Assembly: GCA_024653325.1 (NCBI GenBank)
Contig: JANLFX010000001.1
Span: 10,228-74,227, forward strand
Reading direction: 5' to 3'
Length of the DNA: 64,000 bases
From: Anaerolineae bacterium
GTDB taxonomy: Bacteria; Chloroflexota; Anaerolineae; JACIWR01
Below the pieces are notes generated by a model. The model was not told where the DNA came from and did not search any database. It saw nothing but the letters and a program-made list of their open reading frames with translations. The position numbers were made by a program, and so were the translations under genes. Positions within the stretch are counted from its first letter, which is position 1; every line of letters begins with the position of its first letter. Below, in pieces: positions 31,417-59,619 of this stretch.

Positions 31417-31431
31417 GTCGCTGGATCATCA

Positions 31432-31460
31432 TTGACAAAGTGGTTGAAAGGGTGTATACT
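31432..31460 (+). promoter_or_regulatory. Consensus sigma70 promoter (TTGACA, 17 nt spacer, TATACT) for the fumarate hydratase operon
   Basis: -35 at 31432-31437 and -10 at 31455-31460, giving an about 160-nt leader before ATG 31628. Confidence 0.55.
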
Positions 31461-31498
31461 ACGCCCCGCTAACCGAAGCCTCAAAGGAGAGACGGTGC

Positions 31499-31585
31499 AT
31501 GGTGTTTGGTTCGCCCGAGACACTGGAGAGTCTAAGCGGGAACAACGGGTTGAGGGTAATGGGACATCTAAAGGCATGGTTTTAA
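31499..31585 (+). CDS. Candidate 28-aa leader peptide (MVFGSPETLESLSGNNGLRVMGHLKAWF) in the fumA leader
   Basis: Strong SD AAGGAGAG 7-8 nt before ATG 31499. The stop TAA at 31583-31585 lies in the loop of the downstream terminator hairpin. Confidence 0.35.
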   Translation: MVFGSPETLESLSGNNGLRVMGHLKAWF

Positions 31586-31610
31586 GCCTGTGTGGTGTCC
31601 CATTTTTCTT
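31558..31610 (+). terminator. Leader terminator/attenuator hairpin (AATGGGACA...TGTCCCATT followed by TTTTCTTT)
   Basis: About 10-bp stem with one mismatch and a U-tract, located between the promoter and the fumA start. Confidence 0.5.
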
Positions 31611-31627
31611 TCGATTGAGGAGGGGCC

Positions 31628-32476
31628 ATGGTGCGGGAGGTCAAGACAGAGATAATCACCAGCGAGGTTGCTCGACTGTGTGTCGAGGCTTGTTATTATT
31701 TGGGCGATGATGTGCTGGCAGCGCTGAAGAAGGCGCGGGCGAACGAGCCCTCACCGGTGGGCCAGGCCGTGCTCGATCAAATCCTGCAGAACGCGGAGAT
31801 CGCCAGTCGCGGAGAGCTGCCCCTGTGTCAGGACACGGGATTGACGGTGGTGTTCCTGGAGCTGGGCCAGGAGGTGCACATCGTCGGCGGCAGCCTTTAT
31901 GAGGCTATCCAGGAAGGAGTGCGCAAAGGGTACAGGGAAGGCTATCTGCGCAAATCGGTGGTGGAAAAACCCTTTTCAGCGCGGATCAACACCGGCGACA
32001 ACACTCCGGCTGTGATCCATACCGAGATTGTGCCCGGCGATCGTCTGAAAATTACCGTCGCTCCGAAGGGGGGCGGCAGCGAGAACATGAGCTATCTCAG
32101 GATGTTCTCCCCGGCGGCCGGGCGGCAAGGAATCATTGATTGGGTGGTCGAATGTGTGGATAAGTCCGGCGCTAATCCCTGTCCGCCGATCATCGTCGGT
32201 GTGGGCATCGGCGGAACGATTGAGCAGACGACATTGATCGCCAAAAAGGCTCTGCTACGTCCCGTGGGACAACCCCATCCCGACCCGGAAGTGGCGGAGA
32301 TGGAGGCGGAGATTTTGGAGCGGGTGAACAAGCTGGGCATCGGGCCGCAGGGCCTGGGTGGGCGCACGACGGCTCTGGCGGTGCATGTGGAGACGTTTCC
32401 CTGTCACATCGCCAGTATGCCCGCGGCGGTGAACATTCAATGCCACAGCGCCCGGCACAAAGAGGTGGTGATTTAG
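31628..32476 (+). CDS. Class I (Fe-S) fumarate hydratase, alpha subunit (FumA/TtdA N-terminal-type)
   Basis: Motifs CQDTGLTVVFLELGQ, KGGGSENMS and GVGIGGT. Confidence 0.8.
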   Translation: MVREVKTEIITSEVARLCVEACYYLGDDVLAALKKARANEPSPVGQAVLDQILQNAEIASRGELPLCQDTGLTVVFLELGQEVHIVGGSLYEAIQEGVRKGYREGYLRKSVVEKPFSARINTGDNTPAVIHTEIVPGDRLKITVAPKGGGSENMSYLRMFSPAAGRQGIIDWVVECVDKSGANPCPPIIVGVGIGGTIEQTTLIAKKALLRPVGQPHPDPEVAEMEAEILERVNKLGIGPQGLGGRTTALAVHVETFPCHIASMPAAVNIQCHSARHKEVVI

Positions 32477-32485
32477 GAGGAGACG

Positions 32486-33046
32486 ATGGCTGCGATTGAG
32501 ATTACGACTCCGTTGACCGACGAAGTAATCGAGCAACTCCATGCTGGCGACAATGTGTTGATCACAGGCACCATCTACGTCGGGCGCGACGCGGCGCATA
32601 AGCGTCTGGTGGCCGCGCTGGACGCCGGTGAGGAATTGCCCTTCGACCCACGAGGCCAGATCATCTACTACATGGGACCGTCACCGGCTCGTCCGGGGCG
32701 GCCTATCGGTTCTGCCGGACCGACGACCAGTTATCGTATGGACCCCTACGCACCGCGCCTGTTGGAAGTCGGTCTCAAGGGGATGATCGGCAAGGGGAAC
32801 CGCTCTCAGCCCGTGCGAGAGGCGATGCAGAAGTACAAGGCGGTGTATTTTGCGGCTATCGGCGGGGCTGCGGCGCTCATCGCCAATTCTATCAAGGAGG
32901 CCGAGGTCATCGCGTATCCGGACCTGGGGGCGGAGGCACTGCGTCGCCTGCGGGTAGAGGATTTCCCGGCGGTGGTGGTCAATGATATTTATGGCAACGA
33001 CGCTTACGAGATGGGGAAGGCGCAGTACAGAGAAGTGGATGGTTAG
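32486..33046 (+). CDS. Class I fumarate hydratase, beta subunit (FumB/TtdB C-terminal-type)
   Basis: 186 aa with NVLITGTIYVGRDAAHKRL and a swivel beta/beta/alpha domain. Separated from the alpha gene by 9 nt. Confidence 0.8.
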   Translation: MAAIEITTPLTDEVIEQLHAGDNVLITGTIYVGRDAAHKRLVAALDAGEELPFDPRGQIIYYMGPSPARPGRPIGSAGPTTSYRMDPYAPRLLEVGLKGMIGKGNRSQPVREAMQKYKAVYFAAIGGAAALIANSIKEAEVIAYPDLGAEALRRLRVEDFPAVVVNDIYGNDAYEMGKAQYREVDG

Positions 33047-33079
33047 GTGGTCGGATTGGGGGCTTAAGGAGAGAGGCGG

Positions 33080-33487
33080 ATGAGAGTTAAACTTTCGGCG
33101 ATGAGGGTGCGCAATGATCTGGTGCGCCGCATCGAGGAACTCAGCGGGCAGGACTTGCTGGCCTGTTATCAGTGCGGGAAGTGCTCGGCGGGATGCCCGG
33201 CAGCCTTCGCCATGGACCTGCTGCCCAGCCAGGTGATCCGCCTGGTGCAGTTGGGTCTGGTGGAAGAGGTGTTGAACGCGAAGACGCCCTGGTTTTGCGC
33301 GGCTTGCCAGACCTGTTACGCGCGTTGTCCCAAGGGGGTGGACCTCTCGCGCATCATGGAGGCCATCCGGGAGATAGCTTTGCAGGAGCGCGGCGATTAC
33401 CTGGTCATCGAGGAAATCCCCGCCGAGGAGCTGGCCGAGTTCCCGCAACTAGCCTTTATCGGCGGCTTCCGCAAGTACACGGCGTAG
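33080..33487 (+). CDS. hdrC: Heterodisulfide reductase subunit C-like (two 4Fe-4S binding motifs)
   Basis: CYQCGKCSAGCP and CAACQTCYARCP. Confidence 0.8.
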   Translation: MRVKLSAMRVRNDLVRRIEELSGQDLLACYQCGKCSAGCPAAFAMDLLPSQVIRLVQLGLVEEVLNAKTPWFCAACQTCYARCPKGVDLSRIMEAIREIALQERGDYLVIEEIPAEELAEFPQLAFIGGFRKYTA

Positions 33488-33590
33488 GGGTTTCAAGTTC
33501 AAGGTTTCAGGTTTCAAGTTCGCTACCAAACCTGACCTGTAACTTGAAACCTATAACTTGAAACCTGAAACTATAACTAACATGGGTGGA
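33488..33590. repeat. Palindromic repetitive element (GGTTTCAAGTT / AACTTGAAACC units) between hdrC and hdrB
   Basis: The left half GGTTTCAAGTTCAAGGTTTCAGGTTTCAAGTT mirrors the right half AACTTGAAACCTATAACTTGAAACCTGAAAC. Its k-mers (AACCTGAAAC, CAGGTT, CAAGTT) are shared with the in-frame insert at 36484-36614. Confidence 0.7.
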
Positions 33591-33598
33591 GCGTATCA

Positions 33599-34462
33599 AT
33601 GAGGATAGCTTATTTCCCAGGTTGTACACTGAATACCACGGCTAAGGGTTTCGATAACGCCCTGCGGGCTTCGTTTGCTGCTCTGGGGGCGGAGTTGGTG
33701 GAGCTGCCGGAGTGGAACTGCTGTGGGGCGACGTTTCCCTTGCTGGTGGATAACATGCTCGATCTGGTCGCGCCGACGCGGGTGTTGCTGGCCGCGCAAA
33801 GGCAGGGTGACCGGCTGGCCGTGGCCTGCACCATGTGCTACAACGTCATCCGCCGCACCAACAACCGCCTCCGGTCCGATGCCGACGCTCTGGAGAAACT
33901 CAACTACTTCATCGAAGCCGAATATCGCGGCGGGGTCGAGGTGCTGGACGTGTTGCAAATCCTGCGCGACGACGTGGGATTTGAAGCGGTCCAGGCGGCG
34001 GTGAAGAAGCCGCTGACCGGGCTCAAAGTGGCCGCCTACTACGGATGTATGGTTTTGCGCCCGCCAACCGAGGTGGCCTACGACGACCCCGAGAATCCCC
34101 ACGCTCTCGATGATCTGCTGCGGGCTTTGGGCGCGGAGCCGGTGGAGTGGCCGCACAAGGCCGAGTGTTGCGGCGCTTATCTGGCGGTGAAGTCGAAGGA
34201 GGCCACAGCGGAGATGAGTTACCGCATCCTCTCCTCGGCGCAACGGGCCGGGGCGCAGGCCGTGGTCACCAATTGCCCGCTGTGCCAGTTCAACCTGGAC
34301 AAGCAGCAGCTCGACATGGGGCGCCGGCACGGCGGGTATCAGCCCGTTCCGGTGTTGTATTTCTCTCAGTTGCTGGGCGTCGCCCTGGGCCTGGATACGG
34401 CGGATTTTGGCTGGGAGCGGCATTATGTGGATGTCCGTCCCCTGTTGGAGAGCCTGGGGTAG
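33599..34462 (+). CDS. hdrB: Heterodisulfide reductase subunit B-like (two CCG domains)
   Basis: EWNCCGATFPL and KAECCGAYLAV, with the conserved Cys spacing of CCG domains. Confidence 0.85.
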   Translation: MRIAYFPGCTLNTTAKGFDNALRASFAALGAELVELPEWNCCGATFPLLVDNMLDLVAPTRVLLAAQRQGDRLAVACTMCYNVIRRTNNRLRSDADALEKLNYFIEAEYRGGVEVLDVLQILRDDVGFEAVQAAVKKPLTGLKVAAYYGCMVLRPPTEVAYDDPENPHALDDLLRALGAEPVEWPHKAECCGAYLAVKSKEATAEMSYRILSSAQRAGAQAVVTNCPLCQFNLDKQQLDMGRRHGGYQPVPVLYFSQLLGVALGLDTADFGWERHYVDVRPLLESLG

Positions 34463-34469
34463 GTGAAAA

Positions 34470-35795
34470 ATGGCTATTGCTCCGATCCAACGGGTACTGA
34501 TCATCGGTGCGGGCATCGCCGGCATGCAGGCCGCGCTGGACATCGCCAACGCCGGCTACGAGGTGGTGCTGGTCGAGCGTGAGCCGTCCATCGGCGGGCG
34601 CATGGCCCAGCTTTCGGAGACCTTTCCCACCCTGGACTGCGCGCAGTGCATCCTGACCCCGCGCACGGTCGAGGTGGGGCATCACGAGCACATCCGCTTG
34701 CGGACATATTCCGAAGTGGAGGCCGTTGAGGGCCAGTTGGGCGACTTCCGGGTGCGCATCCGTCGCCGCGCGGCCTACGTGAACTGGGAGGTATGCACCG
34801 GCTGCGGGCTTTGCCAGGAAAAGTGCCCGAAGAAGGTCATCTCCGATTTCGAGCGAGGTATTGGCCCGCGCAAGGCTATTTACACCTTGTCGCCCCAGGC
34901 AGTGCCCAACAAGCCGGTGATTGACCGCCAGAGTTGCATCTACTTCGAGCGCGGCAAATGCCGGGCCTGCGAGAAGTTCTGTCCCACGGGAGCCATTGAT
35001 TTCGAGCAGGAGGACGCCATCATCGAGGAACGGGTGGGGGCCATCATCGTGGCCACCGGCTACGACCTGTATCCGCTGTCGTTGCTGGGTGAGTACGGCT
35101 ACGGTGAGGTGCCCGACGTGATTGATAGCCTGGCCTTCGAGCGACTGCTTTCGGCCTCCGGGCCGACAGCGGGCCAGGTACGGCGTCCCTCCGACGGCGC
35201 AGAGCCGAAAGAGGTGGTGTTTATCCAGTGCGCCGGCTCGCGGGATCCCGAACTGCACAAGCCCTACTGCTCGAAAATCTGTTGCATGTACACGGCCAAG
35301 CACGCCATGCTCTACAAGCACAAAGTGCACGACGGCCAGGCCTACGTCTTCTACATTGACATCCGTTCCGCGGGCAAGCGCTACGAGGAATTCGTGCAGC
35401 GGGCGATGGAGGAAGAGCGCGTGCTGTACGTGCGCGGCAAGGTGAGCCGCGTCTTCCGCGAGAACGGCAAGGTCATGGTCTGGGGTACGGATACCCTCAG
35501 CGGGCAAAATGTGGAGGTGGCCGCCGATCTGGTAGTCCTGGCCCCGGCCATGGTGCCGAAAGCGGGATCGGACGTGGTGGCGGAGTTGCTGGACCTGGCG
35601 ACTGACGAACACGGCTGGTTCACCGCAGCGGAGGCGAACCTCCAGCCGGTGGAAACAAAACGAGCGGGAGTGTTCCTGGCCGGGGCAGCGGTGGGGCCCA
35701 TGGACATCCCGGAGACGGTGGCCCAGGCCAGTGGCGCGGCGGCGCAGGTGCTCAGCCTGTTCGCGCAGTGGGCGGAAAGGAACGGGAATGCGTAA
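34470..35795 (+). CDS. hdrA: HdrA-like FAD oxidoreductase with inserted ferredoxin domain but no N-terminal or C-terminal cluster domains
   Basis: GAGIAGMQAALDIANAGYEVVLVE is the FAD site. The inserted 2x[4Fe-4S] ferredoxin is CTGCGLCQEKCP...CRACEKFCP. CAGSRD...YCSKICCMY also present. Confidence 0.8.
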   Translation: MAIAPIQRVLIIGAGIAGMQAALDIANAGYEVVLVEREPSIGGRMAQLSETFPTLDCAQCILTPRTVEVGHHEHIRLRTYSEVEAVEGQLGDFRVRIRRRAAYVNWEVCTGCGLCQEKCPKKVISDFERGIGPRKAIYTLSPQAVPNKPVIDRQSCIYFERGKCRACEKFCPTGAIDFEQEDAIIEERVGAIIVATGYDLYPLSLLGEYGYGEVPDVIDSLAFERLLSASGPTAGQVRRPSDGAEPKEVVFIQCAGSRDPELHKPYCSKICCMYTAKHAMLYKHKVHDGQAYVFYIDIRSAGKRYEEFVQRAMEEERVLYVRGKVSRVFRENGKVMVWGTDTLSGQNVEVAADLVVLAPAMVPKAGSDVVAELLDLATDEHGWFTAAEANLQPVETKRAGVFLAGAAVGPMDIPETVAQASGAAAQVLSLFAQWAERNGNA

Positions 35796-37593
35796 AATCG
35801 GCATTTTCGTCTGTCACTGCGGACTCAACATCGCCGGCACCATTGACGTGCAGCGGGTGGTGGAGGAAATCAAGAAGTACCCCGGCGTGGCCTTCGCCGC
35901 CGACTACAAGTACATGTGCTCGGACCCCGGCCAGGCGCTCATCCGGCAGGCCATTGCCGATTATGGGCTGGACGGCATCGTGGTCGCCGCCTGTTCACCG
36001 GCGATGCACGAGGTGACTTTCCGCAAAGCGGCTCGCGCGGCGGGGGTCAACCCCTATCTGACCGAGATCGCCAACATCCGCGAGCAGATAAGCTGGGTGC
36101 ATCAGACGCAGCCCGAAGAAGCGACACGCAAGGCTATCGAGACCATCGCGACCATCGTCGAGAAGGTGCGCTACGACGAAGCATTGGTGCCTTTCAGCCT
36201 GCCGGTGGTCAAGCGGGCGCTGGTCATCGGCGGAGGCATCGCTGGCATGACGACGGCGTTGCACATCGCCGACGCCGGTTATCCGGTGGTGCTGGTCGAG
36301 CGGGAGGCGCAGCTCGGTGGAAAGATGCGTCAGCTTTCGGGGCTGTACCTCAACTTCGACGCCGCGCCCGATCTGTTGGAAACCAAAATCGCGGCGGTGA
36401 TGCAGCATCCCAACATCCAGGTGCTTACCAATGCTGAAGTAGTAGAGCTTGGTGGATACGTTGGCAACTTCACCGTTAAGATCAGTTCCAGGTTCCAGGT
36501 TCCAGGTTACAAGTTACAAGTTCCAGGTTCTGAGATAGCCCAATCAGGAATAAACCCTCAACCTGAAACCCTGCAACCTGAAACCCTGCAACCTGAAACC
36601 CCGCAACCCGAAACTTTCACCTTCGACATCGGCGCTATCGTGGTCGCCACCGGCTTCGATCTGCTGCCCAAGTCCGAGCTGGGCGAATACGGCGGCGGTC
36701 GCCCACCGGACGTGATTGACGGCCTGCAGTTCGAGCGGATGCTGGCCGAGGGTGAGATTCGTCGTCCCTCCGACGGAGCGGTGCCGAAAGAGGTGGTGTG
36801 GGTACAGTGCGCCGGTTCCCGCGACCCCGAATTGCACATGCCCTACTGCTCGAAGATATGTTGCATGTACGTGGCCAAGCAGGCCATGGCCTACAAGCAG
36901 CGCGTCCCCGACGGCCAGGCCTACGTCTTCTACATTGACATCCGTTCCCAGGGCAAGGGCTACGAGGAATTCGTGCAGCGGGCGATGACTGAGTACGACG
37001 TGCTTTACCTGCGCGGCAAGGTGGCCCGCGTTTTCGAAGAGGATGGGCGGGTGGTGGTGTACGGTGTGGATACTCTCAGCGGCAAGGCGGTCGAGGTGCA
37101 GGCTGATTTGGTGGTGCTGGCCACGGCGGTGGTACCCAGCGCCGGGGCCCGCGACCTGGCCCAGCGATTGCGTGTCTCCACCGACGAGTACGGCTTCTTC
37201 TCCGAGGCGCACCCCAAGCTGCGCCCCGTGGAGAGCCTGACGGCGGGCATCTTCTTGGCCGGAGCGGCCCAGTTCCCCAAGGACATCCCGGAGACCGTGG
37301 CCCAGGCCAGCGGGGCGGCAGCCAAAGTGTTGGGCCTGTTCGCCCAGCGGGAGATGGTACAGGAGCCGACCATCGCTTTCGTAGACGAGGAGTTGTGCGC
37401 CGGCTGCGGACTGTGCGTGGCCGCCTGCCCCTACGAGGCGCGGGTAATGCATCCCTGGAAGCCCATCGCCGTGGTGCAGACGGCGTTGTGCCAGGGTTGC
37501 GGAGCGTGTGTGGTGGCCTGTCCCAACAAGGCCAGCTCGCTGCGCAATCTGTCTACGGAGCAGTTGCTAACCATGATGGAGCCGGTGTTGTGA
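35788..37593 (+). CDS. hdrA: Second HdrA-like subunit: N-terminal Cys-rich domain, FAD domain with a repeat-encoded linker in place of the inserted ferredoxin, and a C-terminal 2x[4Fe-4S] ferredoxin
   Basis: ATG 35788 has an AAAGGAACGGGA SD and overlaps the hdrA1 stop (ATGCGTAA). Motifs IFVCHCGLNIAG...VVAACSP, GGGIAGMTTAL, CAGSRD...YCSKICCMY and CAGCGLCVAACP...CQGCGACVVACP. Confidence 0.8.
   Translation: MRKIGIFVCHCGLNIAGTIDVQRVVEEIKKYPGVAFAADYKYMCSDPGQALIRQAIADYGLDGIVVAACSPAMHEVTFRKAARAAGVNPYLTEIANIREQISWVHQTQPEEATRKAIETIATIVEKVRYDEALVPFSLPVVKRALVIGGGIAGMTTALHIADAGYPVVLVEREAQLGGKMRQLSGLYLNFDAAPDLLETKIAAVMQHPNIQVLTNAEVVELGGYVGNFTVKISSRFQVPGYKLQVPGSEIAQSGINPQPETLQPETLQPETPQPETFTFDIGAIVVATGFDLLPKSELGEYGGGRPPDVIDGLQFERMLAEGEIRRPSDGAVPKEVVWVQCAGSRDPELHMPYCSKICCMYVAKQAMAYKQRVPDGQAYVFYIDIRSQGKGYEEFVQRAMTEYDVLYLRGKVARVFEEDGRVVVYGVDTLSGKAVEVQADLVVLATAVVPSAGARDLAQRLRVSTDEYGFFSEAHPKLRPVESLTAGIFLAGAAQFPKDIPETVAQASGAAAKVLGLFAQREMVQEPTIAFVDEELCAGCGLCVAACPYEARVMHPWKPIAVVQTALCQGCGACVVACPNKASSLRNLSTEQLLTMMEPVL
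36484..36614 (+). repeat. In-frame tandem-repeat insert inside hdrA2 ((AGGTTCC)x6 then (AACCTGAAACCCTGC)x3.5), encoding QVPGYKLQVPGSEIAQSGINPQPETLQPETLQPETPQPET
   Basis: The repeat arrays are in the nucleotide sequence. Unit lengths 7x6=42 and 15 keep the frame. The position matches where HdrA1 carries its ferredoxin insert. Confidence 0.8.
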
Positions 37594-37609
37594 GAGGAGG
37601 GTGGGTCAT

Positions 37610-37638
37610 GTGCGACGCACCTCTCAGGTGCGTCGCAC
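37610..37638 (+). terminator. GC hairpin GTGCGACGCACCT-ctca-GGTGCGTCGCAC after hdrA2
   Basis: 12-13 bp perfect stem 17 nt after the TGA. No U-tract. Confidence 0.45.
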
Positions 37639-37661
37639 GTGACAAATGTGAGTGAGACCTT

Positions 37662-37731
37662 TGTCAACGAATGGCGAAACGAATAAACGAATGTCGGACC
37701 ATGCGTTTATTCGTTGGCTATTCGTTGACAG
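37662..37731. repeat. Palindromic CGAAT-iteron element family 2, copy 2
   Basis: TGTCAACGAATGGCGAAACGAATAAACGAATG...TTTATTCGTTGGCTATTCGTTGACAG. More than 85% identical to 6842-6921. Confidence 0.65.
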
Positions 37732-37797
37732 AGCATGGCGAGCCGGGATGGCGGACAGGGCCGTCCGCCGCTACACCTCTCGCTTGAGGAGCGAAAC

Positions 37798-38331
37798 GTG
37801 ACCGAGACAGCAACCTCGTTCTCCGAAATCATCCAGGCCCGCAGCGGCGAACCGCTGCACACTTGCTACTTCTGTCAGAAGTGCACGGCGGGTTGCCCGG
37901 TGGCCTATGCTATGGACTACAAACCGGCCCAGGTGGTGCGCCTGATCCTGTTAGGACGCCGGGACACGCTTTTGCGCAGCAACGCCCCCTGGCTCTGCGT
38001 GGGTTGTGATACCTGTGGTGCGCGTTGCCCTAACGATATTTACCTGGCCCCTGTCATGGACGTGCTCAAGGAGATGGCGCTGGAGGCGGGCCTTGCCCCG
38101 GCAGAGAAGAAGGTCTACGCGCTGCATCAATCGTTCCTGGATTCCATCAAGCTGTGGGGACGCACGCATGAGCTTTCGATGCTGATGGAGTACAAACTGC
38201 GCGCCGTGGACCTCTTCACCGACCTGGACCTGGGCCTGCGGTTGATGCTAAAGGGGAAGATTTCCATGTTGCCGGAAAGGATTAAGGACCTGGAGCGAGT
38301 GCGAGCCTTGTACAGGAGGGTGGGACGGTGA
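37798..38331 (+). CDS. hdrC: HdrC-like 4Fe-4S protein, second copy
   Basis: GTG 37798 with a GAGGAG SD. The ORF track ATG at 37735 has no SD. Motifs CYFCQKCTAGCP and CVGCDTCGARCP. Confidence 0.75.
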   Translation: MTETATSFSEIIQARSGEPLHTCYFCQKCTAGCPVAYAMDYKPAQVVRLILLGRRDTLLRSNAPWLCVGCDTCGARCPNDIYLAPVMDVLKEMALEAGLAPAEKKVYALHQSFLDSIKLWGRTHELSMLMEYKLRAVDLFTDLDLGLRLMLKGKISMLPERIKDLERVRALYRRVGR

Positions 38332-39185
38332 GGTATTCCTATTATCCGGGTTGCACTTTAAGCTCGACCGGCGTAGAATATGGGCAGTCGGTGGCCGCGG
38401 TCTGTGAGGTGCTGGGCATTGAGCTGGTGGAGCTGGAGGACTGGAGCTGTTGTGGCTCCTCCTCGGCCCACGCCCTGGACCACGAACTGGCTCTCAGCCT
38501 GCCGGTGCGCAACATCGCCCTGGCCCAACCGGCTGGAATGGATACCCTCATGCCCTGCCCGGCCTGCTACCAGCGGACGTTGCGCGCCGACAGGCGTCTG
38601 CGCGAGGATGAGGCCTGGCGTCGGGAGATGGAAGCGCTGTTGGGCTTTGCCTACGACGGCCAGGGCCGCCCTCGCCATCTGCTGGACGTGCTGGGACACG
38701 ACCTGCCGGCGGAGGCTATCTCCTCCCGCGTGCGGCGTCCGCTGAAGGGGCTCAAGCCGGTCAGCTACTACGGCTGTATGCTCGTCCGCCCACCCAAACT
38801 CACCGGCTGGGACGACCCTGAACATCCCGTGCTCATGGATCGTCTGCTGAGCACTCTCGGCGCGGAACCGGTGGTCTGGTCCTATGGCGTGGACTGTTGC
38901 GGGGGTAGCTTGTCCTTGGACCGCAGCGATGTGGTCAAGACCCTGGTGGGCCGCCTGGCGACTGCCGCTGCGGAGGCGGGGGCCAATTGCATCGTCACCG
39001 TCTGTGGCATGTGCCACATCAACCTGGACACGCGCCAACAGGGCACGCAAATGCCCGTCTTTTATCTGACCGAGTTGATGGGCCTGGCCCTGGATTTGCC
39101 GGGACAGGAGCAATGGTTTAATAAGCATTTTATCAATCCGCTGCCGTTATTGGCATCGCTGGGGTTGGTGGGGCAGCGGCGTTAA
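38328..39185 (+). CDS. hdrB: HdrB-like CCG-domain protein, second copy
   Basis: GTG start overlapping the hdrC2 stop. Motifs DWSCCGSSSAHAL and GVDCCGGSLSL. Confidence 0.8.
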   Translation: MRYSYYPGCTLSSTGVEYGQSVAAVCEVLGIELVELEDWSCCGSSSAHALDHELALSLPVRNIALAQPAGMDTLMPCPACYQRTLRADRRLREDEAWRREMEALLGFAYDGQGRPRHLLDVLGHDLPAEAISSRVRRPLKGLKPVSYYGCMLVRPPKLTGWDDPEHPVLMDRLLSTLGAEPVVWSYGVDCCGGSLSLDRSDVVKTLVGRLATAAAEAGANCIVTVCGMCHINLDTRQQGTQMPVFYLTELMGLALDLPGQEQWFNKHFINPLPLLASLGLVGQRR

Positions 39186-39208
39186 TGTAGTGCATTCAGG
39201 AGTGAAAA

Positions 39209-39772
39209 ATGGAGAAAACGCTCAAGTCGTACCGTTCAGTAGCCACTTTGCCCGATGGAACTCAGGTGATCTTACGTCCCCTGCAACAAAGTGATGGGTC
39301 CCGCCTGCTGGACATGTTCAAAAGGGTCAGCGAAGGCGACCTGGATTACTTCCGCTCTGACGTGCGCAATCAGGAGGTGCTGGAGGAATGGGTGACCCAC
39401 CTGGACTACGACCGGGTCTTCCCCCTGGTCGCCGTGTGCGATGACCGCATCGTGGGGGACGCGACCTTGCACTTCGGCACCGGGCCGCACCACCACATCG
39501 CTGAGGTGCGCATCTTCCTCGTTGAGGAGTTTCGCCGGCGGGGGCTGGGTACTCTCATGCTGCAGACCCTGGTGCAACTGGCCAAGAGGATGGGCTTGTA
39601 TCAACTGGTGGCCGAGATCCCGATGGAGCAGAGTCATGTGATCAAGGCGTTCAAGGCCATTGGCTTCTCGTCCAAGTTCATCCGCGAAGACTACTTCATG
39701 ACCCCCGACGGCCTGACCCACGACGTGGTCGTGCTCACCCTGCGCCTGGTGGACCGCACGGGGGAGTTCTGA
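39209..39772 (+). CDS. GNAT-family acetyltransferase
   Basis: VRIFLVEEFRRRGLGTLMLQTLVQLAKRMG is an acetyl-CoA binding motif. Confidence 0.7.
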   Translation: MEKTLKSYRSVATLPDGTQVILRPLQQSDGSRLLDMFKRVSEGDLDYFRSDVRNQEVLEEWVTHLDYDRVFPLVAVCDDRIVGDATLHFGTGPHHHIAEVRIFLVEEFRRRGLGTLMLQTLVQLAKRMGLYQLVAEIPMEQSHVIKAFKAIGFSSKFIREDYFMTPDGLTHDVVVLTLRLVDRTGEF

Positions 39773-39803
39773 TCACCACGCCGGGCGAGGGGGGAGGGGC
39801 GGT

Positions 39804-40085
39804 TTGGGTTACCGCCGTCTATTGGGAGGGAGACCCGTGTCACAAGCCAATGTGAAATTGACGATTCCCTTCGAGTCGCTGGTTGAATCCATCACCAGGC
39901 TGGGCCTCAAGGAGAAACTCCGGCTTTGGCAATTGCTCACCGAGCAAATCGCCCAGCTAGAGGAAGAGCTATGGGAGCAGGACCCAATTGCTCAGGCCGA
40001 GATTCGGGAGGCACGCGAGGCCTACCAGGCTGGGGACTATGTGACCATTGATGAGTACCTTGCCCGTCAGCAGAGCAAAAGCTGA
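39804..40085 (+). CDS. Putative antitoxin of a RelE/ParE-type toxin-antitoxin pair
   Basis: Small acidic ORF with a TTG start at 39804 or GTG at 39837, each after a GGGAGG box. Its stop overlaps the toxin ATG (TGATG). Confidence 0.45.
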   Translation: MGYRRLLGGRPVSQANVKLTIPFESLVESITRLGLKEKLRLWQLLTEQIAQLEEELWEQDPIAQAEIREAREAYQAGDYVTIDEYLARQQSKS

Positions 40086-40347
40086 TGAATTACCAGGTCC
40101 TCGTCCCCAAGCCGGTGCAAAAACATTGGATGGTTTGCCCGAAAACGTACGCAGGCGGATTATTCAGCGAATCGTGGCATTGAAAGAGAACCCACGTCCA
40201 CCAGGGTCTGTCAAATTGAAGGGTTACGAGAACGAGTACCGAATCCGCGTGGGCGACTATCGGGTGAGATACGAAGTTTGGGACAACGAGGCCGTTGTAC
40301 TGTTGCTGCATTGCGGGCATCGGAAAGATGTGTACAGGCGGCGCTGA
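40085..40347 (+). pseudogene. RelE/ParE-family toxin gene with a 1-nt frameshift in an A5 tract
   Basis: ATG 40085 gives MNYQVLVPKPVQK, a typical RelE N-terminus. The remainder, TLDGLPENVRRRIIQRIVALKENPRPPGSVKLKGYENEYRIRVGDYRVRYEVWDNEAVVLLLHCGHRKDVY, is in the -1 frame. The frames meet in CAAAAAC at 40117-40123, and one extra A would restore an 87-aa protein. Confidence 0.55.
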
Positions 40348-40381
40348 CGGACAGTAGACCACGAAAGTAAGAGGTGTAAAC

Positions 40382-43300
40382 TTGGGTTCCGAGAGCGACA
40401 GCGTTGTCAGATCGGATTCAGTGGTAGGTGCCGTATTGGTCGTCGGCGGCGGCATCGGGGGCATGCAGGCCGCGTTGGACCTGGCTGGCGCCGGCTTCAA
40501 GGTCTATCTGCTGGAGGAGAAGCCAGCCATCGGCGGCATCATGGCCCAGTTGGACAAGACTTTCCCCACCAACGACTGCGCCATGTGCATCATGTCCCCC
40601 AAGCTGGTGGAATGTGGCCGCCACCTGAATATCGAGATCATCACTGGTGCCGAGTTGCAGGAACTGCGTGGCCAGCCGGGCAATTTCACCGCCGTGGTGC
40701 ATCAGCGGGCCAGGTTTGTGGACCTGGACAAGTGCACCGGCTGCGGCGATTGCGCCCAGGCCTGCCCGGTGAAATTGCCGGACCTGTTTAACGCTGGCCT
40801 GGCGGAGCGTAAGGCCATCTACAAGCTCTACCCGCAGGCCACGCCTAACGCCTACGCCATCGAGAAACGGGGCACCTCCCCCTGCCGCCATGCCTGCCCT
40901 ATCCACCAGCGGGCCCAGGGCTACATCGCCCTCATCCGCGAACAGCGATACGCGGAGGCCTATCGCGTCATCAAAGAGGATAACCCCTTCCCCGCCATCT
41001 GTGGCCGCATCTGTAACCACCGCTGCGAGGATGAGTGCTCCCGCAACAAAGTGGACGAGCCAATTTCCATTATGGCCCTCAAGCGCTTCGTCGTTGACCG
41101 GGTGCAGGATATGGAGCGCGAGCCCATCACTCCCCCGCAGCGCATCCACGAGGAGCGCATCGCCATTGTCGGTTCCGGTCCGGCGGGGCTGACCGCCGCC
41201 CACGATCTGGTGAAAATGGGTTACGGGGTCACCGTCTTCGAGGCGCTGCCCGTGGCGGGGGGGATGATGCGCGTCGGCGTGCCCGAGTACCGCCTGCCCG
41301 CCAAGTTGATCCAACGCGAGATTGACGACATCCTGGCCCTGGGAGTGGAGCTCAAACTCAACACCCGCGTGGACGATGTGGACGCGCTGCTCAAGGACGG
41401 CTACGCCGCCGTGTTCCTGGCGGTGGGCGCGCACCAGGGCCGCAAGCTGCGCATTCCAGGGGCCGATTTGCCCGGCGTGCTGCTCAACACCGATTTTCTG
41501 CGCCAGGTGCGCCTGGGCGAGCGACCGGCGTTGGGCGAGCGGGTGTTGGTGCTGGGTGGCGGTAACGTGGCCGTGGACGTGGCCCGCACGGCGGTGCGCC
41601 TGGGGGCCAAAGAGGTGTACATGAGCTGCCTGGAAGGCCGCGAGAGTATGCCCGCCCATCCCTGGGAGATCGCCGAGGCCGAGGAAGAAGGGGTGCGCAT
41701 CTTTCCCGGGCGTACCTTCAAAGAAATCGTGGCCCGCGACGGTCGGGTGGCGGGGGTGCGCTGCTGGGAGGTGGACTTTCGCGGTTTCACCGCCGATGGC
41801 CGCCTGGACATGGACGAGTTCCCGGAGACAGAGCACATCATCGAGGCCGACACCGTCATCTTCGCCATCGGCCAAATGCCGGACCTGAGACTGCTGGGCG
41901 AGGACGGTCAGATCAGGATGACGCGACAGCGTACCATCGAAGTTGACCCGGAGACGCTGGTCACGGGCAAGCCGGGGGTCTTCGCCGGCGGGGACGTGGT
42001 GACAGGCACGGCTTTTGTGGTGGAAGCTATCGCCGCCGGACACAAGGCGGCCCGTTCCATTGACCGCTTCCTGCGGGGTGAGGAACTGGGCGCGCGCGAG
42101 CCGGTCCTGCAGCCCAAAGTCGAGCTGAGCGCGGAGGAGATTCGGGAGCGGCTGGAGCAGGGGGACATCGTGCCCCGGCCCCGGGCGCGAGCGCGCAATC
42201 TGCCCGTGGAAGAGCGCGTTAACAACTTCTGTGAGGTGAGCCTGGGTCTGAGCGAAGAGGAAGCTCTGGCGGAGGCGCAGCGCTGTCTCTCCTGCGGGAT
42301 TTGCTCCGAATGTCTGGAGTGTGTTTACGCCTGTAAAGCTGGGGCCGTGAACCACGAGATGACGGACCAGGTCCGCGAGTTGAACGTGGGGGCCGTGATC
42401 CTCACCCCCGGCGTGGAGCTCTTCGACGCCCGTCTCAAGGGCGAGTACGGTTACGGCTATTATCCCAACGTGGTGACCAGTATCGAGTTCGAGCGCATCC
42501 TCTCCGCCTCGGGGCCTTTCGGCGGGCACGTGCAGCGTCCTTCGGACGGCAAAGAGCCAAAGCGCATCGCCTGGTTGCAATGCATTGGCTCCCGCGACGC
42601 GGCCTGTGGGCAGGATTACTGCTCCGCCGTGTGTTGTATGTACGCCATCAAAGAGACCATCATCGCCAAAGAGCACCTGCCTGGCGTGGAGACGACGGTC
42701 TTCTTCCTGGACATCCGCGCCTTCGGCAAGGACTTCGACAAGTACTATGAGACAGCCAGGACCCGGCATGGGGTGCGTTTTATCCGCAGCTTTGTCTCCT
42801 CGGTGAAGCAGGTGCCGGGCACGAAGAACCTGCGCATCACCTACGTGGGCGAGGACGGGGAACTGCGCGAGGAGGAGTTCGACCTGGTGGTGCTCTCCGT
42901 CGGGCTGCGGCCCACGGCATCGGCGCAGGAGATGGCTCGTCGGCTGGGGTTGCAGCTCAATCGCTTCGGCTTCTGCGAGAGCGAGGCTTTCGCCCCCACG
43001 GAGACGACGCGGCCCGGCGTGTTCGTCGCCGGGGCCTTCGGCGAACCGAAGGACATCCCGGAGACGGTGGTAGAGGCTTCCTGCGCGGCAGCCCATGCCT
43101 CGCGTTTGCTGGCCCCTGCGCGCGGCACGTTGACGCGGGTCAAAGAGTACCCGCCAGAGCGGGATGTCTCCGATGAGGAGCCGCGTGTGGGCGTTTTCAT
43201 CTGTCATTGTGGCATCAACATCGGCGCCGTGGTGGACGTGCCCCAGGTGGTGGAGTACGCTAAGACGCTGCCCGGGGTGGCCTATGCCGAGCACAATCTC

Positions 43301-44869
43301 TACACCTGCTCTCAGGACACGCAGCAGCGCATCAAGGAGCGCATCGAGGAGTACGGGCTGAACCGCGTGGTGGTGGCTTCCTGCACGCCGCGCACTCACG
43401 AGCCCCTGTTCCAGGATACGCTCCGCGAGGCCGGGCTGAACCCTTACTTCTTCGAGATGACCAATCTGCGCGAGCAGGATTCGTGGGTGCACCGTGCTTT
43501 TCCGGAACTGGCCACGCTCAAGGCCAAGGAGCTGGTGCAGATGGCGGTGGCCAAAGCGCGATGGCTGCGGCCCTTACCCCGCCTGCGTTTCGACCTGGTG
43601 CACAGTGCCCTGGTCATCGGCGGGGGGCTTTCCGGGATGACGGCGGCGCTGTCCATCGCCGACCAGGGCTATCCGGTGCATCTGGTGGAACGGGAGCCGG
43701 AGCTGGGCGGTCATCTGCGGCATATCCACTACGGCCTCGGCGAAGAGGACCCTCAGCGTCTGTTGCGCGAGACCATCGCGCGCGTGGAAAGCCATCCGCG
43801 CATCCATGTTTACAAGAACAGCGAGATAACGGACATCTCCGGCTACGTGGGCAAGTTCCAGACCACGCTGGCTTCCATGGACGGCCAGCAGACCACGGTG
43901 GAGCATGGGGTGGTAGTGGTGGCCACGGGGGCCAAAGCGGTGGAGCCGACCTCGTATTTGTACGGCCAGGACGAGCGGGTGCTGACCCAAGTGGAGCTAG
44001 AGGAGCGATTGGCCCAGAAAGACGGGTCGCTGGCTCAGGCGGACACGGTGGTCATGATCCAGTGCGTGGAGTCCCGGGACGAGCAACGCCCCTATTGCAG
44101 CCGCATCTGCTGTTCGCAAGCCATCAAGAACGCGCTGCGCCTCAAGGAGTTGAACCCGCGGGCCCGCGTCTACGTCCTTTACCGCGACATTCGCGCCTAC
44201 GGCTTCCGTGAGCTATACTACCAGCAGGCTCGCCAGGCGGGAGTGGTCTTCCTCCCATATGACGCGGAGGACAAGCCCCGTGTGGAAGTGGCGGATGGGC
44301 GGCTACGGGTAGAAGCGACCATGGTGGGCATGGTGGGCATGGCGGGTGAGGTGCTGACGTTGGAGCCCGATTACCTGGTCCTCAGCACCGGCATTGAACC
44401 GGGCGACAACAGCGCGCTGGCCCAGTTGTTGAAGGTGCCTCTCAACGAGGACGGTTTCTTCCTGGAGGCGCATGTCAAGCTGCGGCCTCTGGATTTCGCC
44501 GTGGACGGGGTGTATTTGTGTGGCCTGGCCCATTCCCCGAAGTCGGTTGAGGAGTCCATGGCCCAGGCCCACGGGGCAGCCATTCGGGCAGTGACCATGC
44601 TCTCCCGCGAGTACATCGAGACCCCGGGCACGGTGGCCACCGTCAATGAGCGGCTGTGCAGCGGCTGCGGGTTGTGCGTCGCCGCCTGTCCCTACGACGC
44701 GCGCCGGATAGATGAGGAGCGGCACATCGCTGAGGTCATCACCGTGCTCTGCCAGGGATGCGGGGCCTGCGTGGTGGCCTGTCCCAACGGAGCCAGTCAG
44801 CACCTCGGTTTCGAAATGCGGCAGGAATTGGCTAAAATAGATGCGGCGCTGAGTTATGCGGAGGCGTGA
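40382..44869 (+). CDS. Giant fusion oxidoreductase: an HdrA-like FAD domain split by a GltD/NfnB-like NAD(P)H-flavin module, followed by a second complete HdrA-like unit
   Basis: 1495 aa with a TTG start after AGAGGTG. HdrA FAD motif VVGGGIGGMQAALDLAGAGF. Ferredoxin CTGCGDCAQACP. GltD-type CRHACPIH...GRICNHRCEDECSR and IAIVGSGPAGLTAAHDL. Also CLSCGICSECLECVYAC and CIGSRD...YCSAVCCMY. The second unit has VFICHCGINIGAVVDV, LVIGGGLSGMTAALSIADQGY and a C-terminal CSGCGLCVAACP...CQGCGACVVACP. Confidence 0.75.
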   Translation: MGSESDSVVRSDSVVGAVLVVGGGIGGMQAALDLAGAGFKVYLLEEKPAIGGIMAQLDKTFPTNDCAMCIMSPKLVECGRHLNIEIITGAELQELRGQPGNFTAVVHQRARFVDLDKCTGCGDCAQACPVKLPDLFNAGLAERKAIYKLYPQATPNAYAIEKRGTSPCRHACPIHQRAQGYIALIREQRYAEAYRVIKEDNPFPAICGRICNHRCEDECSRNKVDEPISIMALKRFVVDRVQDMEREPITPPQRIHEERIAIVGSGPAGLTAAHDLVKMGYGVTVFEALPVAGGMMRVGVPEYRLPAKLIQREIDDILALGVELKLNTRVDDVDALLKDGYAAVFLAVGAHQGRKLRIPGADLPGVLLNTDFLRQVRLGERPALGERVLVLGGGNVAVDVARTAVRLGAKEVYMSCLEGRESMPAHPWEIAEAEEEGVRIFPGRTFKEIVARDGRVAGVRCWEVDFRGFTADGRLDMDEFPETEHIIEADTVIFAIGQMPDLRLLGEDGQIRMTRQRTIEVDPETLVTGKPGVFAGGDVVTGTAFVVEAIAAGHKAARSIDRFLRGEELGAREPVLQPKVELSAEEIRERLEQGDIVPRPRARARNLPVEERVNNFCEVSLGLSEEEALAEAQRCLSCGICSECLECVYACKAGAVNHEMTDQVRELNVGAVILTPGVELFDARLKGEYGYGYYPNVVTSIEFERILSASGPFGGHVQRPSDGKEPKRIAWLQCIGSRDAACGQDYCSAVCCMYAIKETIIAKEHLPGVETTVFFLDIRAFGKDFDKYYETARTRHGVRFIRSFVSSVKQVPGTKNLRITYVGEDGELREEEFDLVVLSVGLRPTASAQEMARRLGLQLNRFGFCESEAFAPTETTRPGVFVAGAFGEPKDIPETVVEASCAAAHASRLLAPARGTLTRVKEYPPERDVSDEEPRVGVFICHCGINIGAVVDVPQVVEYAKTLPGVAYAEHNLYTCSQDTQQRIKERIEEYGLNRVVVASCTPRTHEPLFQDTLREAGLNPYFFEMTNLREQDSWVHRAFPELATLKAKELVQMAVAKARWLRPLPRLRFDLVHSALVIGGGLSGMTAALSIADQGYPVHLVEREPELGGHLRHIHYGLGEEDPQRLLRETIARVESHPRIHVYKNSEITDISGYVGKFQTTLASMDGQQTTVEHGVVVVATGAKAVEPTSYLYGQDERVLTQVELEERLAQKDGSLAQADTVVMIQCVESRDEQRPYCSRICCSQAIKNALRLKELNPRARVYVLYRDIRAYGFRELYYQQARQAGVVFLPYDAEDKPRVEVADGRLRVEATMVGMVGMAGEVLTLEPDYLVLSTGIEPGDNSALAQLLKVPLNEDGFFLEAHVKLRPLDFAVDGVYLCGLAHSPKSVEESMAQAHGAAIRAVTMLSREYIETPGTVATVNERLCSGCGLCVAACPYDARRIDEERHIAEVITVLCQGCGACVVACPNGASQHLGFEMRQELAKIDAALSYAEA

Positions 44870-44913
44870 AACGTGAGAACGTGAAACGCGAAACGTGAAG
44901 CGTAAAACGTAAG
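44864..44913. repeat. Degenerate tandem repeat (GTGAAACG-like unit, about 6 copies) overlapping the stop of the giant hdrA gene
   Basis: GTGAAACGTGAGAACGTGAAACGCGAAACGTGAAGCGTAAAACGTAAG. Confidence 0.75.
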
Positions 44914-44921
44914 GGGGCACA

Positions 44922-46478: not shown

Positions 46479-46529
46479 GGAACACGTCCCGTACATAGAG
46501 AGTGAAAAGGATTTAAGGAGAGTGTGACT

Positions 46530-47834: not shown

Positions 47835-47854
47835 AGCTGAAAGGAGGACGCGAG

Positions 47855-48508: not shown

Positions 48509-48665
48509 CGGCGCCTTATCTCACACCGACGTAACTGCTCACCGCCGAGGCGCAGAGAGCGCAGAGGAAAAAAAGATTTGCAGGATTATTCCTGTGCTAC
48601 GCCTCTCTGCATGCCGCGGTGGGAACTTGGCTTGGGTGTTGTAGCATATGGACGAGGAGTGATTC

Positions 48666-49088: not shown

Positions 49089-49107
49089 GAATCACCGAGG
49101 TAGAAAT

Positions 49108-50238: not shown

Positions 50239-50251
50239 TGGGGAGGTTATC

Positions 50252-59536: not shown

Positions 59537-59552
59537 GGGATGCTCACTCTCA

Positions 59553-59584: not shown

Positions 59585-59619
59585 CAAGTGGGCAAACACG
59601 CATCTGTCAACTAACCAGG

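Follow-up and report, generated by a model that had tools for sequence, protein, structure and literature searches.

A conserved Anaerolineae operon for a soluble HdrL/HdrABC-type complex with asymmetric HdrA proteins and fumarate as a candidate electron sink

The window analyzed here is a 64,000 nucleotide (nt) stretch of DNA from an Anaerolineae bacterium (GCA_024653325.1, contig JANLFX010000001.1, positions 10,228-74,227 of the forward strand); positions below are counted from its first letter. An initial annotation of positions 31628-44869, made from the sequence alone, had described an island of redox genes with a class I fumarase, heterodisulfide reductase (Hdr) genes and one giant gene that fuses HdrA- and NfnB-like parts. 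We find that this region makes up about two-thirds, on the 5' side, of an operon conserved in Anaerolineae, which would encode a soluble multi-flavin Hdr-type bifurcating or confurcating complex. In the best reading of the predicted proteins, the complex is linked to NAD(P)H and ferredoxin and has fumarate as its likely electron sink. The probability of this explanation as a whole is put at about 0.5; its structural part, the domain content and the ligand patterns of the HdrA proteins, can be stated with high confidence. Proteins are given with their length in amino acids (aa), and the genes on which the argument rests are the following.

31628-32476, + strand: fumA, class I iron-sulfur (Fe-S) fumarate hydratase, alpha subunit (Pfam Fumerase, E 9e-119; NCBIfam NF004885, 416.5 bits, cut-off 276)
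32486-33046, + strand: fumB, class I fumarate hydratase, beta subunit (Pfam Fumerase_C, E 5e-60; NCBIfam NF005310, 288.3 bits, cut-off 238)
33080-33487, + strand: hdrC1, dicluster ferredoxin-like protein, 135 aa (Pfam Fer4_8/9/17; best NCBIfam model TIGR03290, HdrC)
33599-34462, + strand: hdrB1, protein with two CCG domains, 287 aa (Pfam CCG, two stretches)
34470-35795, + strand: hdrA1, FAD domain of the thioredoxin reductase (TrxR)-like type with inserted ferredoxin, 441 aa (alignment to 8rvu_a)
35788-37593, + strand: hdrA2, N-terminal Cys domain, FAD domain and C-terminal ferredoxin, 601 aa (alignment to 8rvu_a)
37735-38331, + strand: hdrC2, 198 aa (Pfam dicluster families; best NCBIfam model HdrC, below its cut-off)
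38328-39185, + strand: hdrB2, protein with two CCG domains, 285 aa (Pfam CCG)
40382-44869, + strand: giant gene of the HdrL type, 1495 aa (Pfam; alignment to HdrA and to GltD/NfnB-like chains)
48666-49088, + strand: mvhD, [2Fe-2S] adaptor of the FlpD family (Pfam FlpD, 182 bits, cut-off 22)
49108-50238, + strand: FdhB/FrhB-like Fe-S protein, 376 aa (phmmer against FdhB subunits)
50225-50932, + strand: FrdB/SdhB-like Fe-S subunit, 235 aa (Pfam dicluster families; Cys motifs)
50949-52559, + strand: FrdA/TfrA-like flavoprotein, 536 aa (Pfam FAD_binding_2, E 3e-71)

The operon extends into a fumarate reductase-like module

All genes between 31628 and 52559 lie on the + strand and are mostly separated by short gaps; the stop codon of fumB is 33 nt ahead of hdrC1. 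Every gene named in the initial annotation was found in its place and on this strand. Its two hdrCBA sets had to be redrawn, the actual order being hdrC1-B1-A1-A2-C2-B2, and its right-hand end at 44869 cuts the functional unit, which continues to about 52559.

The proteins of the window were compared with the open reading frames (ORFs) of 79 fetched loci, which are designated by L numbers. The mvhD gene was present in 70 of the 79, mostly directly after the giant gene, and a gene for the FdhB-like protein followed mvhD in 49. Downstream sequence of 8 kb or more was available for 48 loci, and in 20 of these, genes for the FrdB-like and FrdA-like proteins came next; behind mvhD and the FdhB-like gene they are on the same strand, with overlaps or short gaps, in three phyla. 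The full order hdrC1B1A1A2C2B2-(GNAT)-giant-mvhD-FdhB-like-FrdB-like-FrdA-like was detected in nine Anaerolineae loci (L004, L005, L006, L010, L011, L013, L014, L026 and L030). L040 (Aerophobetes) and L048 (Bacillota) carry the same gene set with fumAB upstream, like the window, L003 and L042.

In the window, mvhD is displaced from the giant gene by a 3.6-kb insertion (44922-48508) with genes for an FGGY kinase, a RuBisCO-like protein and a CBS-ACT protein, which is why the rest of the operon was hidden from the initial annotation. The insertion is lineage-specific and lies outside the conserved unit: among the fetched loci, only L002, a 97%-identical metagenome-assembled genome (MAG), also has the FGGY gene right after the giant gene, and its contig ends before the other two genes. 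The mvhD behind the insertion shares 74% identity with its counterpart in L001, which comes after the giant gene there.

The FdhB-like protein has only ferredoxin families in Pfam and no NCBIfam assignment. In phmmer searches it matched the FdhB subunits of solved supercomplexes of formate dehydrogenase and Hdr (Fdh-Hdr; 9t1s_M, E 8e-26; 7bkb_E, E 5e-22; 8rvu_E, E 1e-16), in which these subunits connect to HdrA through MvhD. The FrdB-like protein is free of CCG domains; it has the SdhB-type [2Fe-2S] motif CX4CX2C...C and two CXXCXXCXXXCP motifs, and the cysteines of these do not vary among 28 sequences. For the FrdA-like flavoprotein, TfrA is the best NCBIfam model (350 bits, cut-off 718), NadB models reach 216-269 bits, also under their cut-offs, and the matches in the PDB are SdhA, NadB and FrdA. 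From the alignments to SdhA and NadB, the residues of the dicarboxylate site (H321, R341, R371, H435 and R469) are invariant or nearly so in 20 sequences. The position of the His that carries the covalent FAD in SdhA is taken by Asn128, which is invariant in 20 of 20 orthologs; NadB, a member with non-covalent FAD, has Asn there as well. The FrdA-like flavoprotein is the likely site for an organic acid. The initial annotation had looked for organic-acid-reducing sites in the CCG proteins, for which we found no support.

Both fumarase subunits score above the NCBIfam equivalog cut-offs for the two-subunit fumarate hydratase, in agreement with the assignment to class I made before, and tartrate dehydratase models score well under their own cut-offs. 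The fumA gene is also found upstream of hdrC1 in L003, L042, L040 and L048.

The two HdrB proteins noted previously are present and have two CCG domains each by Pfam, with two complete CX(n)CCX(n)CXXC motifs (of the CX31CCX34CXXC type in HdrB1). HdrC1 and HdrC2 each have two CxxCxxCxxxCP dicluster motifs. All four are under the equivalog cut-offs of the enzyme acting on coenzyme B (CoB) and coenzyme M (CoM): HdrB1 reaches 188 bits and HdrB2 143 bits with TIGR03288 (cut-off 345), HdrC1 72 bits and HdrC2 62 bits with TIGR03290 (cut-off 160). The SdhE model of NCBIfam matches the HdrB proteins as well as TIGR03288 does. In many loci hdrC2-hdrB2 stand immediately ahead of the giant gene. In L042 (5852-9949) and also in L003, the closest relatives that contain fumAB, a 1365-aa ORF takes the place of hdrC2-hdrB2-GNAT, so that only one HdrBC pair is left in the operon there; inspection by eye suggests a membrane sensor histidine kinase with GAF-like repeats.

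Fumarate or a disulfide as electron acceptor

The midpoint potential of fumarate/succinate (about +30 mV) is far more positive than those of NAD(P)H (about -320 mV) and ferredoxin (-420 mV or lower), and the Frd-like end could therefore serve only as an electron sink. We propose that the C-terminal ferredoxin of the HdrA2-type unit docks MvhD, followed by the FdhB-like, FrdB-like and FrdA-like proteins, as FdhAB-MvhD does in formate-dependent Hdr. The net reaction would be an NAD(P)H-dependent reduction of fumarate to succinate, the fumarate being formed from malate by the adjacent fumarase, and this exergonic step would drive the reduction of ferredoxin. The non-cubane clusters of HdrBC or some dithiol/disulfide may act as relay. 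A comparable coupling exists in Methanothermobacter, where Mvh-Hdr together with the thiol:fumarate reductase TfrAB gives H2-dependent fumarate reduction with reduction of ferredoxin. That bifurcation is linked to fumarate at all is a tentative reading. The more specific version, a quinone-independent soluble HdrA-type bifurcating NAD(P)H:fumarate/ferredoxin oxidoreductase with fumarate from the class I fumarase as high-potential acceptor, has to be called doubtful.

Several observations weigh against fumarate as the sink. The fumAB genes adjoin the operon in only five of the 79 loci. About half of the loci with a giant gene, including all of the sulfate-reducer type, are without an FrdA-like gene, and in L001, hdr genes, giant gene and mvhD were found with no frd genes nearby; a link to fumarate is therefore not universal to the HdrL family. 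The FrdA-like flavoprotein is under the TfrA cut-off and almost as similar to L-aspartate oxidase, so that its substrate can be assigned only tentatively, from the gene context. In methanogen Hdr, the C-terminal ferredoxin is the docking site of MvhD and the input side, and the inserted ferredoxin is the exit towards ferredoxin (PMC9012536). As the canonical MvhD side is an input and not an output, the proposed flow needs a re-purposed branch. Further, intact CCG sites in HdrB have no explained role if fumarate is the high-potential acceptor, and four HdrA-type FADs stand beside only two HdrBC pairs.

Alternatively, the complex may be an HdrL/HdrABC-type NAD(P)H:disulfide oxidoreductase, bifurcating or not, which reduces a small-molecule or protein disulfide, a role that DsrC was proposed to have in sulfate reducers, and to which the fumarase and the FrdAB-like proteins are mere pathway neighbours. 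All ten CCG cysteines are kept in both HdrB proteins, and HdrL-mvhD-FeS-hdrABC clusters without frd genes occur in Desulfosarcina, Desulfotomaculum, Thermodesulfobacteriota and Syntrophobacter fumaroxidans, as in L001. Against this alternative stand the FrdB-like and FrdA-like genes, which in 20 of the 48 informative loci come behind mvhD and the FdhB-like gene in the same orientation; nor is another redox partner apparent for the FrdB-like protein. Moreover, no gene for DsrC, TusA or a lipoate-binding carrier was identified among the operon genes scanned. We consider a disulfide as the terminal acceptor rather unlikely, and continue with fumarate as the candidate sink.

The giant protein carries an NAD(P)H module in its inserted ferredoxin

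The giant protein was aligned to HdrA 5odc_A in four segments: residues 16-163 to 144-291, 641-858 to 293-511, 932-1085 to 2-155 and 1355-1485 to 513-645. For residues 165-648 the matches are GltD/NfnB-like modules, with Fer4_20 at 165-244 and Pyr_redox_2 at 259-553 in Pfam. The chain begins as an HdrA1-type unit, into which a GltD/NfnB-like NAD(P)H module is inserted, and continues as an HdrA2-type unit. The module sits between the two cluster motifs of the inserted ferredoxin, the first being CTGCGDCAQACP and the second CSECLECVYAC. Of the architecture given in the initial annotation, the GltD/NfnB-type module with its FAD and NAD(P)H motifs is real, and so is the HdrA2-type unit behind it; what the module interrupts is the inserted-ferredoxin domain, and not the FAD fold as had been stated. 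Domain mapping, which had been suggested as a check, confirmed the NAD(P)H-binding module and returned incomplete domain sets for both HdrA1 and HdrA2.

The N-terminal unit is without the N-terminal Cys domain and has C66, C69 and the inserted ferredoxin. The C-terminal unit has the N-terminal Cys domain and the C-terminal ferredoxin, lacks the inserted ferredoxin and has no Cys at the positions equivalent to Cys197 of HdrA. Both units have a GxGxxG FAD domain and a CxGSRD...YCSxxCC motif. A comparison of 80 full-length giant-type sequences, drawn from many phyla, showed no or almost no variation at any cluster cysteine or in the three GxGxxG motifs; C66/C69 are present in the N-terminal unit only.

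This architecture had been treated as unusual. It recurs in hundreds of genomes, and its elements have been published: in a collection with one genome per species, 566 stretches encoding relatives of the giant protein were found across many phyla, which also answers the question whether the fusion recurs in related genomes. Of these, 78 loci were kept, from Chloroflexota, Bacillota, Thermodesulfobacteriota, Desulfosarcina, WOR-3, Planctomycetota, Acidobacteriota and others. Among the protein matches listed, 120 are near-full-length homologs, nearly all of about 1500 aa, with 60-92% identity and generic names only. An exact-sequence look-up of the giant protein returned no record; the closest genome is the Anaerolineae MAG L002 (97% identity).

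Judged by the published descriptions of the named members, the giant protein belongs to the known HdrL kind. In accordance with these descriptions it has a GltD-type NAD(P)H region (165-553) inside HdrA and a co-located mvhD. In Desulfosarcina (L079), a full-length relative with 50% identity is followed by mvhD.

Shorter relatives were also observed. Proteins of about 1010 aa in L057, L052 and L064 are fused double HdrA proteins without the NfnB-like insertion, as seen in a tree, and those in L047, L059 and L049 were judged alike from their size and BLAST match only. Genes for these double-HdrA proteins adjoin giant-type genes, and several genomes have two or three giant-type copies per locus.

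The NAD(P)H module is probably not a bifurcating site

Compared with solved structures, residues 165-648 scored highest with chains of the StnC/Bfu-NfnA type (9bov_A, 379 bits; 9n5u_A, 340; 8oh5_C, 315) and lower with NfnB (4ylf_B, 279 bits, aligned to its residues 44-462; 5jca_L, 249). The module shares a C-terminal extension with the StnC/Bfu-NfnA types, which NfnB does not have. Among the operon genes scanned there is none for an NfnA partner with [2Fe-2S] and FAD. From the StnC-type scores and the missing NfnA-like gene, we read the module as an NAD(P)(H) port that is wired to the HdrA flavin via the clusters of the ferredoxin domain.

The initial annotation had taken NfnB-like modules as bifurcating sites, in which case the FAD of the module would split the electrons of NADPH between the HdrA chain and ferredoxin. 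This could appeal to NfnAB, where the homologous FAD of NfnB bifurcates (PMC5861303), to the FAD and NADPH Rossmann motifs and the two [4Fe-4S] motifs, all conserved in the 80 giant-type sequences, and to the possibility of two bifurcation sites raised for anaerobic methanotrophic archaea (ANME; PMC9012536). Bifurcation by NfnB needs a second exit via the [2Fe-2S] and FAD of NfnA, whereas the sole exit visible here is the two-cluster chain, as in GltD and StnC; and in StnC, one of the best structural relatives, the homologous FAD is reported to be non-bifurcating, the function having been lost (PMC10482914). A bifurcating flavin in the module is thus improbable. Of the NAD(P)H-linked, Hdr-like bifurcating enzyme that had been predicted, the link to NAD(P)H is plausible and the NfnB-like FAD is not favoured as the site of bifurcation.

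The giant protein has a GltD/StnC-like NAD(P)H:FAD:2x[4Fe-4S] unit spliced into its ferredoxin-exit domain; with the module as a port, the ferredoxin-exit branch would end there. Since the module lies in this domain, NAD(P)(H) should communicate with the HdrA flavin through that branch. Bifurcation, if any, would occur at an HdrA-type FAD and not at the NfnB-like one.

HdrA1 and HdrA2 are complementary paralogs

Residues 7-427 of HdrA1 align to 152-568 of the solved HdrA 8rvu_a (E 5e-127), a span from which it follows that HdrA1 is without the N-terminal domain and the C-terminal ferredoxin. HdrA2 aligns to the same protein in two parts, 3-235 to 13-245 and 272-600 to 320-652 (E 6e-159). The inserted ferredoxin (about 246-319 of 8rvu_a) is the sole part missing, and a repeat-rich linker of about 36 aa stands in its place. 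These alignments bear out the complementary domain content noted earlier, and the 8-nt overlap of the two genes, ATGCGTAA, is real as well.

In solved HdrA, Cys197 of one protomer ligates the cluster in the N-terminal domain of the other protomer (PMC9012536). HdrA1 keeps the equivalent pair, C57 and C60 (TLDC57AQC60), and HdrA2 has NFDAAPD at these positions, i.e. the ligand is lost. Among orthologs from Anaerolineae genomes, the motif DC[AS]QC is invariant in 14 HdrA1 sequences and no Cys is found at the corresponding positions in 13 of 13 HdrA2 sequences, while the cluster motif of the TrxR domain, CxGSRD...YCSxxCC, is conserved in all of them. No single HdrA-type unit of the locus has the full set of four domains together with Cys197; these features are split complementarily both between HdrA1 and HdrA2 and between the two units of the giant protein, and by the criterion of PMC9012536 both pairs are asymmetric HdrA. 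The same complementary pattern was published for tandem ANME HdrA genes, together with the inference of a heterodimer (Chadwick et al., 2022, PMC9012536).

By analogy, we infer that HdrA1 and HdrA2 form an obligate asymmetric heterodimer, which would contain one complete bifurcation circuit instead of two. In this circuit, electrons would pass from the C-terminal ferredoxin of HdrA2 to FAD. One branch would lead from the FAD via the N-domain cluster, completed by the cysteine of HdrA1, to the inserted ferredoxin of HdrA1 and on to ferredoxin, and the other via the cluster of the FAD domain to HdrC/HdrB.

The two proteins had been thought to look like one split HdrA, i.e. the halves of a gene that underwent fission and together rebuild one ordinary protomer. 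Complementary domains and an overlap that suggests translational coupling would agree with such an event. Fission is nevertheless very improbable, as in HdrA1 and in HdrA2 alike the TrxR-like FAD domain (about 330 aa) is complete and has a GxGxxG and a CxGSRD...YCSxxCC [4Fe-4S] motif of its own, and the Cys197 pattern makes sense only between the two FAD domains of a dimer. The proteins are 69% identical over 245 aa and form sister clades in a rough neighbour-joining tree of the C-terminal part of the FAD domain. Finally, a full-length HdrA (653-656 aa) occupies the same operon slot in L048 (Bacillota) and L040 (Aerophobetes) and groups with HdrA1 and HdrA2 in the tree; in L048 this protein has the complete set of four domains as well as the Cys197 motif, and its identity is 61% with HdrA1 and 53% with HdrA2. 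In the simplest history, a full-length HdrA gene would have been duplicated in tandem and the two copies would have lost complementary parts. That the truncated genes are decaying pseudogenes without function, as domain losses and the repeat expansion in the HdrA2 linker might suggest, is hardly credible, given intact reading frames, cofactor ligands that do not vary among the 13-14 genomes sharing the architecture (56-74% identity), and the same pattern fixed in the fused giant protein across phyla.

The repeats of hdrA2 (36485-36614) sit in the linker that stands in for the inserted ferredoxin. They comprise a 7-bp periodicity at 36485-36530 and an in-frame 15-bp tandem repeat (4.3 copies, 36552-36614) that encodes PETLQ repeats, and they bring the HdrA2 of the window to 601 aa, compared with 566-585 aa in its orthologs, a difference of about 16-35 aa.

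Downstream of mvhD, L025, L027-L029, L035, L012, L016 and L022 have a second, divergent pair of HdrA1-like and HdrA2-like genes (47-51% and 42-45% identity). Such a pair occurs in many Anaerolineales loci, its members standing on either side of a 377-aa HdrC/FdhB-like protein, and its place is between the FdhB-like and the FrdB-like/FrdA-like genes. In L032, L034 and L046, a protein of about 920 aa with a match to the giant protein takes the place of the HdrA1-like member.

Neighbouring genes and other features

The remaining features of the region are listed here.

31432-31460, + strand: promoter-like site TTGACA-17-TATACT upstream of fumA (11 of 12 consensus positions, the best in 31000-50900; a consensus match only)
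39209-39772, + strand: GNAT acetyltransferase (Pfam Acetyltransf_1)
44922-46478, + strand: FGGY-family sugar kinase (Pfam, NCBIfam)
46524-47834, + strand: RuBisCO-like protein (Pfam, NCBIfam)
47855-48508, + strand: CBS-ACT protein (Pfam, NCBIfam)

The GNAT gene is found between hdrB2 and the giant gene also in L001, L004, L010 and L014. It is followed by a 610-bp gap (39773-40381) without an Rfam match, whose small ORFs are kept only in the near-identical MAG; a second GNAT gene is present in the corresponding gap of L001, L004 and L014. The RuBisCO-like protein has its best match with the MtnW-type enolase model PRK09549 (397 bits, just under the cut-off of 409).

No RNA element was detected in the whole window with Rfam at gathering thresholds and a tRNA scan. 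Terminator-like sites were fewer than in shuffled controls and none was convincing, so that an operon break could not be placed.

A flavodoxin gene (Flavodoxin_5, 52594-53145, - strand) converges on the end of the operon. It was rejected as a conserved partner, as it has no counterpart in the 79 loci; its product could be a low-potential acceptor. Further downstream (55721-59683, - strand) a 1320-aa ORF, by eye with a hydrophobic, membrane-like N-terminal half and an NHL-like, repeat-rich C-terminal half, is unrelated to the Hdr operon.

Significance and comparison with known systems

Only four families of flavin-based electron-bifurcating enzymes are known, of which the HdrA-type complexes form one, and outside methanogens few of their substrates are known. 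Anaerolineae are abundant fermenters of digesters, sediments and groundwater, and the operon described here is widespread among them. It provides a bacterial case of a putative symmetry-broken HdrA heterodimer, both as two genes and as a fusion, for which ANME genomes and the fused HdrA of Moorella were the previous examples. The conserved link to FrdAB-like proteins and fumarase offers a concrete, testable acceptor for an HdrL-type enzyme in a large uncharacterised family. If the proposal is correct, it would explain the formation of succinate and the balance of NAD(P)H and ferredoxin without a quinone-linked fumarate reductase. Anaerolineae, some Bacillota and Aerophobetes would then have an energy-conserving fumarate respiration or fermentation that needs no membrane, and bifurcating enzymes of the HdrA class would gain an organic acid as acceptor, here in a complex based on an obligately asymmetric HdrA heterodimer. 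Should the link to fumarate not be confirmed, the region would still stand as a well-annotated example of the HdrL/HdrABC kind.

The finding overturns nothing established. Asymmetric HdrA pairs, fused pairs, NfnB-type insertions and HdrL with MvhD and an FdhB-like protein have each been published. In the literature covered, which left most subscription papers aside, including reviews of HdrA diversity, we found no description of this Chloroflexota operon or of an HdrL/MvhD/FdhB-like set combined with soluble FrdAB-like proteins and fumarase, and phrase searches for a bifurcating or Hdr-linked fumarate reductase found nothing.

With the methanogen complexes MvhADG-HdrABC and FdhAB-MvhD-HdrABC (5odc, 8rvu, 7bkb, 9t1s) the operon shares the HdrA domain types and cofactor motifs, the CCG motifs of HdrB, HdrC and MvhD, with an FdhB-like subunit beside MvhD as in Fdh-Hdr; HdrA1 and HdrA2 align to archaeal HdrA with E 1e-127 to 1e-159. 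It differs in that no hydrogenase or FdhA is encoded and NAD(P)H and FrdAB-like modules take the place of the H2 or formate modules. Two complementary HdrA paralogs and a fused pair are present, and HdrB and HdrC are under the cut-offs for CoB-CoM. Neither CoM nor CoB is expected in a bacterial host.

Among the ANME paralogs, the tandem HdrA5/6 and 12/13 and the fused HdrA3/4 show the complementary loss of the N-terminal domain and Cys197, and HdrA9-11 of ANME-1 have an NfnB-like insertion of about 500 aa within the inserted-ferredoxin domain, as in the giant protein (PMC9012536). In HdrA3/4 the N-terminal domain is in the N-terminal unit, an order that is reversed in the giant protein. In addition, fusion and insertion are combined here in one chain, in a bacterial context and with an FrdAB-like module instead of FdhAB. 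The fused double HdrA of the MetFV-HdrABC-MvhD complex of Moorella thermoacetica likewise has the complementary loss of Cys197 and N-terminal domain in one chain; it is without the NfnB insertion, its partner is a methylene-tetrahydrofolate reductase and NADH enters by another route.

HdrL of Desulfobacterium autotrophicum and HdrABC/HdrL of S. fumaroxidans are described with a large fusion of HdrA and glutamate synthase, NAD(P)H site(s) and a co-located mvhD (PMC2702500, PMC5947623). The S. fumaroxidans cluster also has an FeS protein like FdhB or the hydrogenase beta subunit and hdrABC nearby, as here, and the HdrABC/FeS/MvhD/HdrL cluster is expressed (PMC2702500, PMC5947623). Some of the named HdrL proteins are selenoproteins, they were discussed with DsrC and sulfite reduction, and no fumarate reductase module was reported for them.

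The solved structures that match residues 165-648 best, with 315-379 bits, are GltD-like NADPH domains of StnC and of the Bfu-type NfnA (8oh5_C, 9n5u_A and 9bov_A). Those domains occur in fusion with NuoG/FdhF-like modules and deliver electrons to a bifurcating core of the HydBC type, whereas the domain of the giant protein is embedded in HdrA. The bacterial sHdr of sulfur oxidisers (hdrC1B1A-hyp-hdrC2B2) has a superficially similar gene order with two different HdrBC pairs; among the operon genes scanned, none for lipoate-binding proteins, DsrE or TusA was identified. An sHdr reading, which the C1-B1-A...C2-B2 order had brought up, was rejected, as sHdrA (6tjr) aligns only to residues 191-430 of HdrA1 (E 2e-44, compared with E 1e-127 for archaeal HdrA) and HdrA2 is likewise much more similar to archaeal HdrA than to 6tjr.

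The Tfr systems offer parallels to the proposed function. TfrA of Methanothermobacter is the best NCBIfam match of the FrdA-like flavoprotein, under the cut-off, and TfrB combines an FrdB-like part with CCG domains, which here are found in the separate HdrB proteins, the FrdB-like protein being free of them. In tubeworm symbionts and Thioflavicoccus, clusters of tfrAB-flxABCD-hdrABC led to the proposal, from synteny, of an NADH-linked Hdr wired to a soluble fumarate reductase (PMC6315080). There NAD(P)H would enter through FlxABCD; in the operon described here, its entry would be the HdrL-type fusion.

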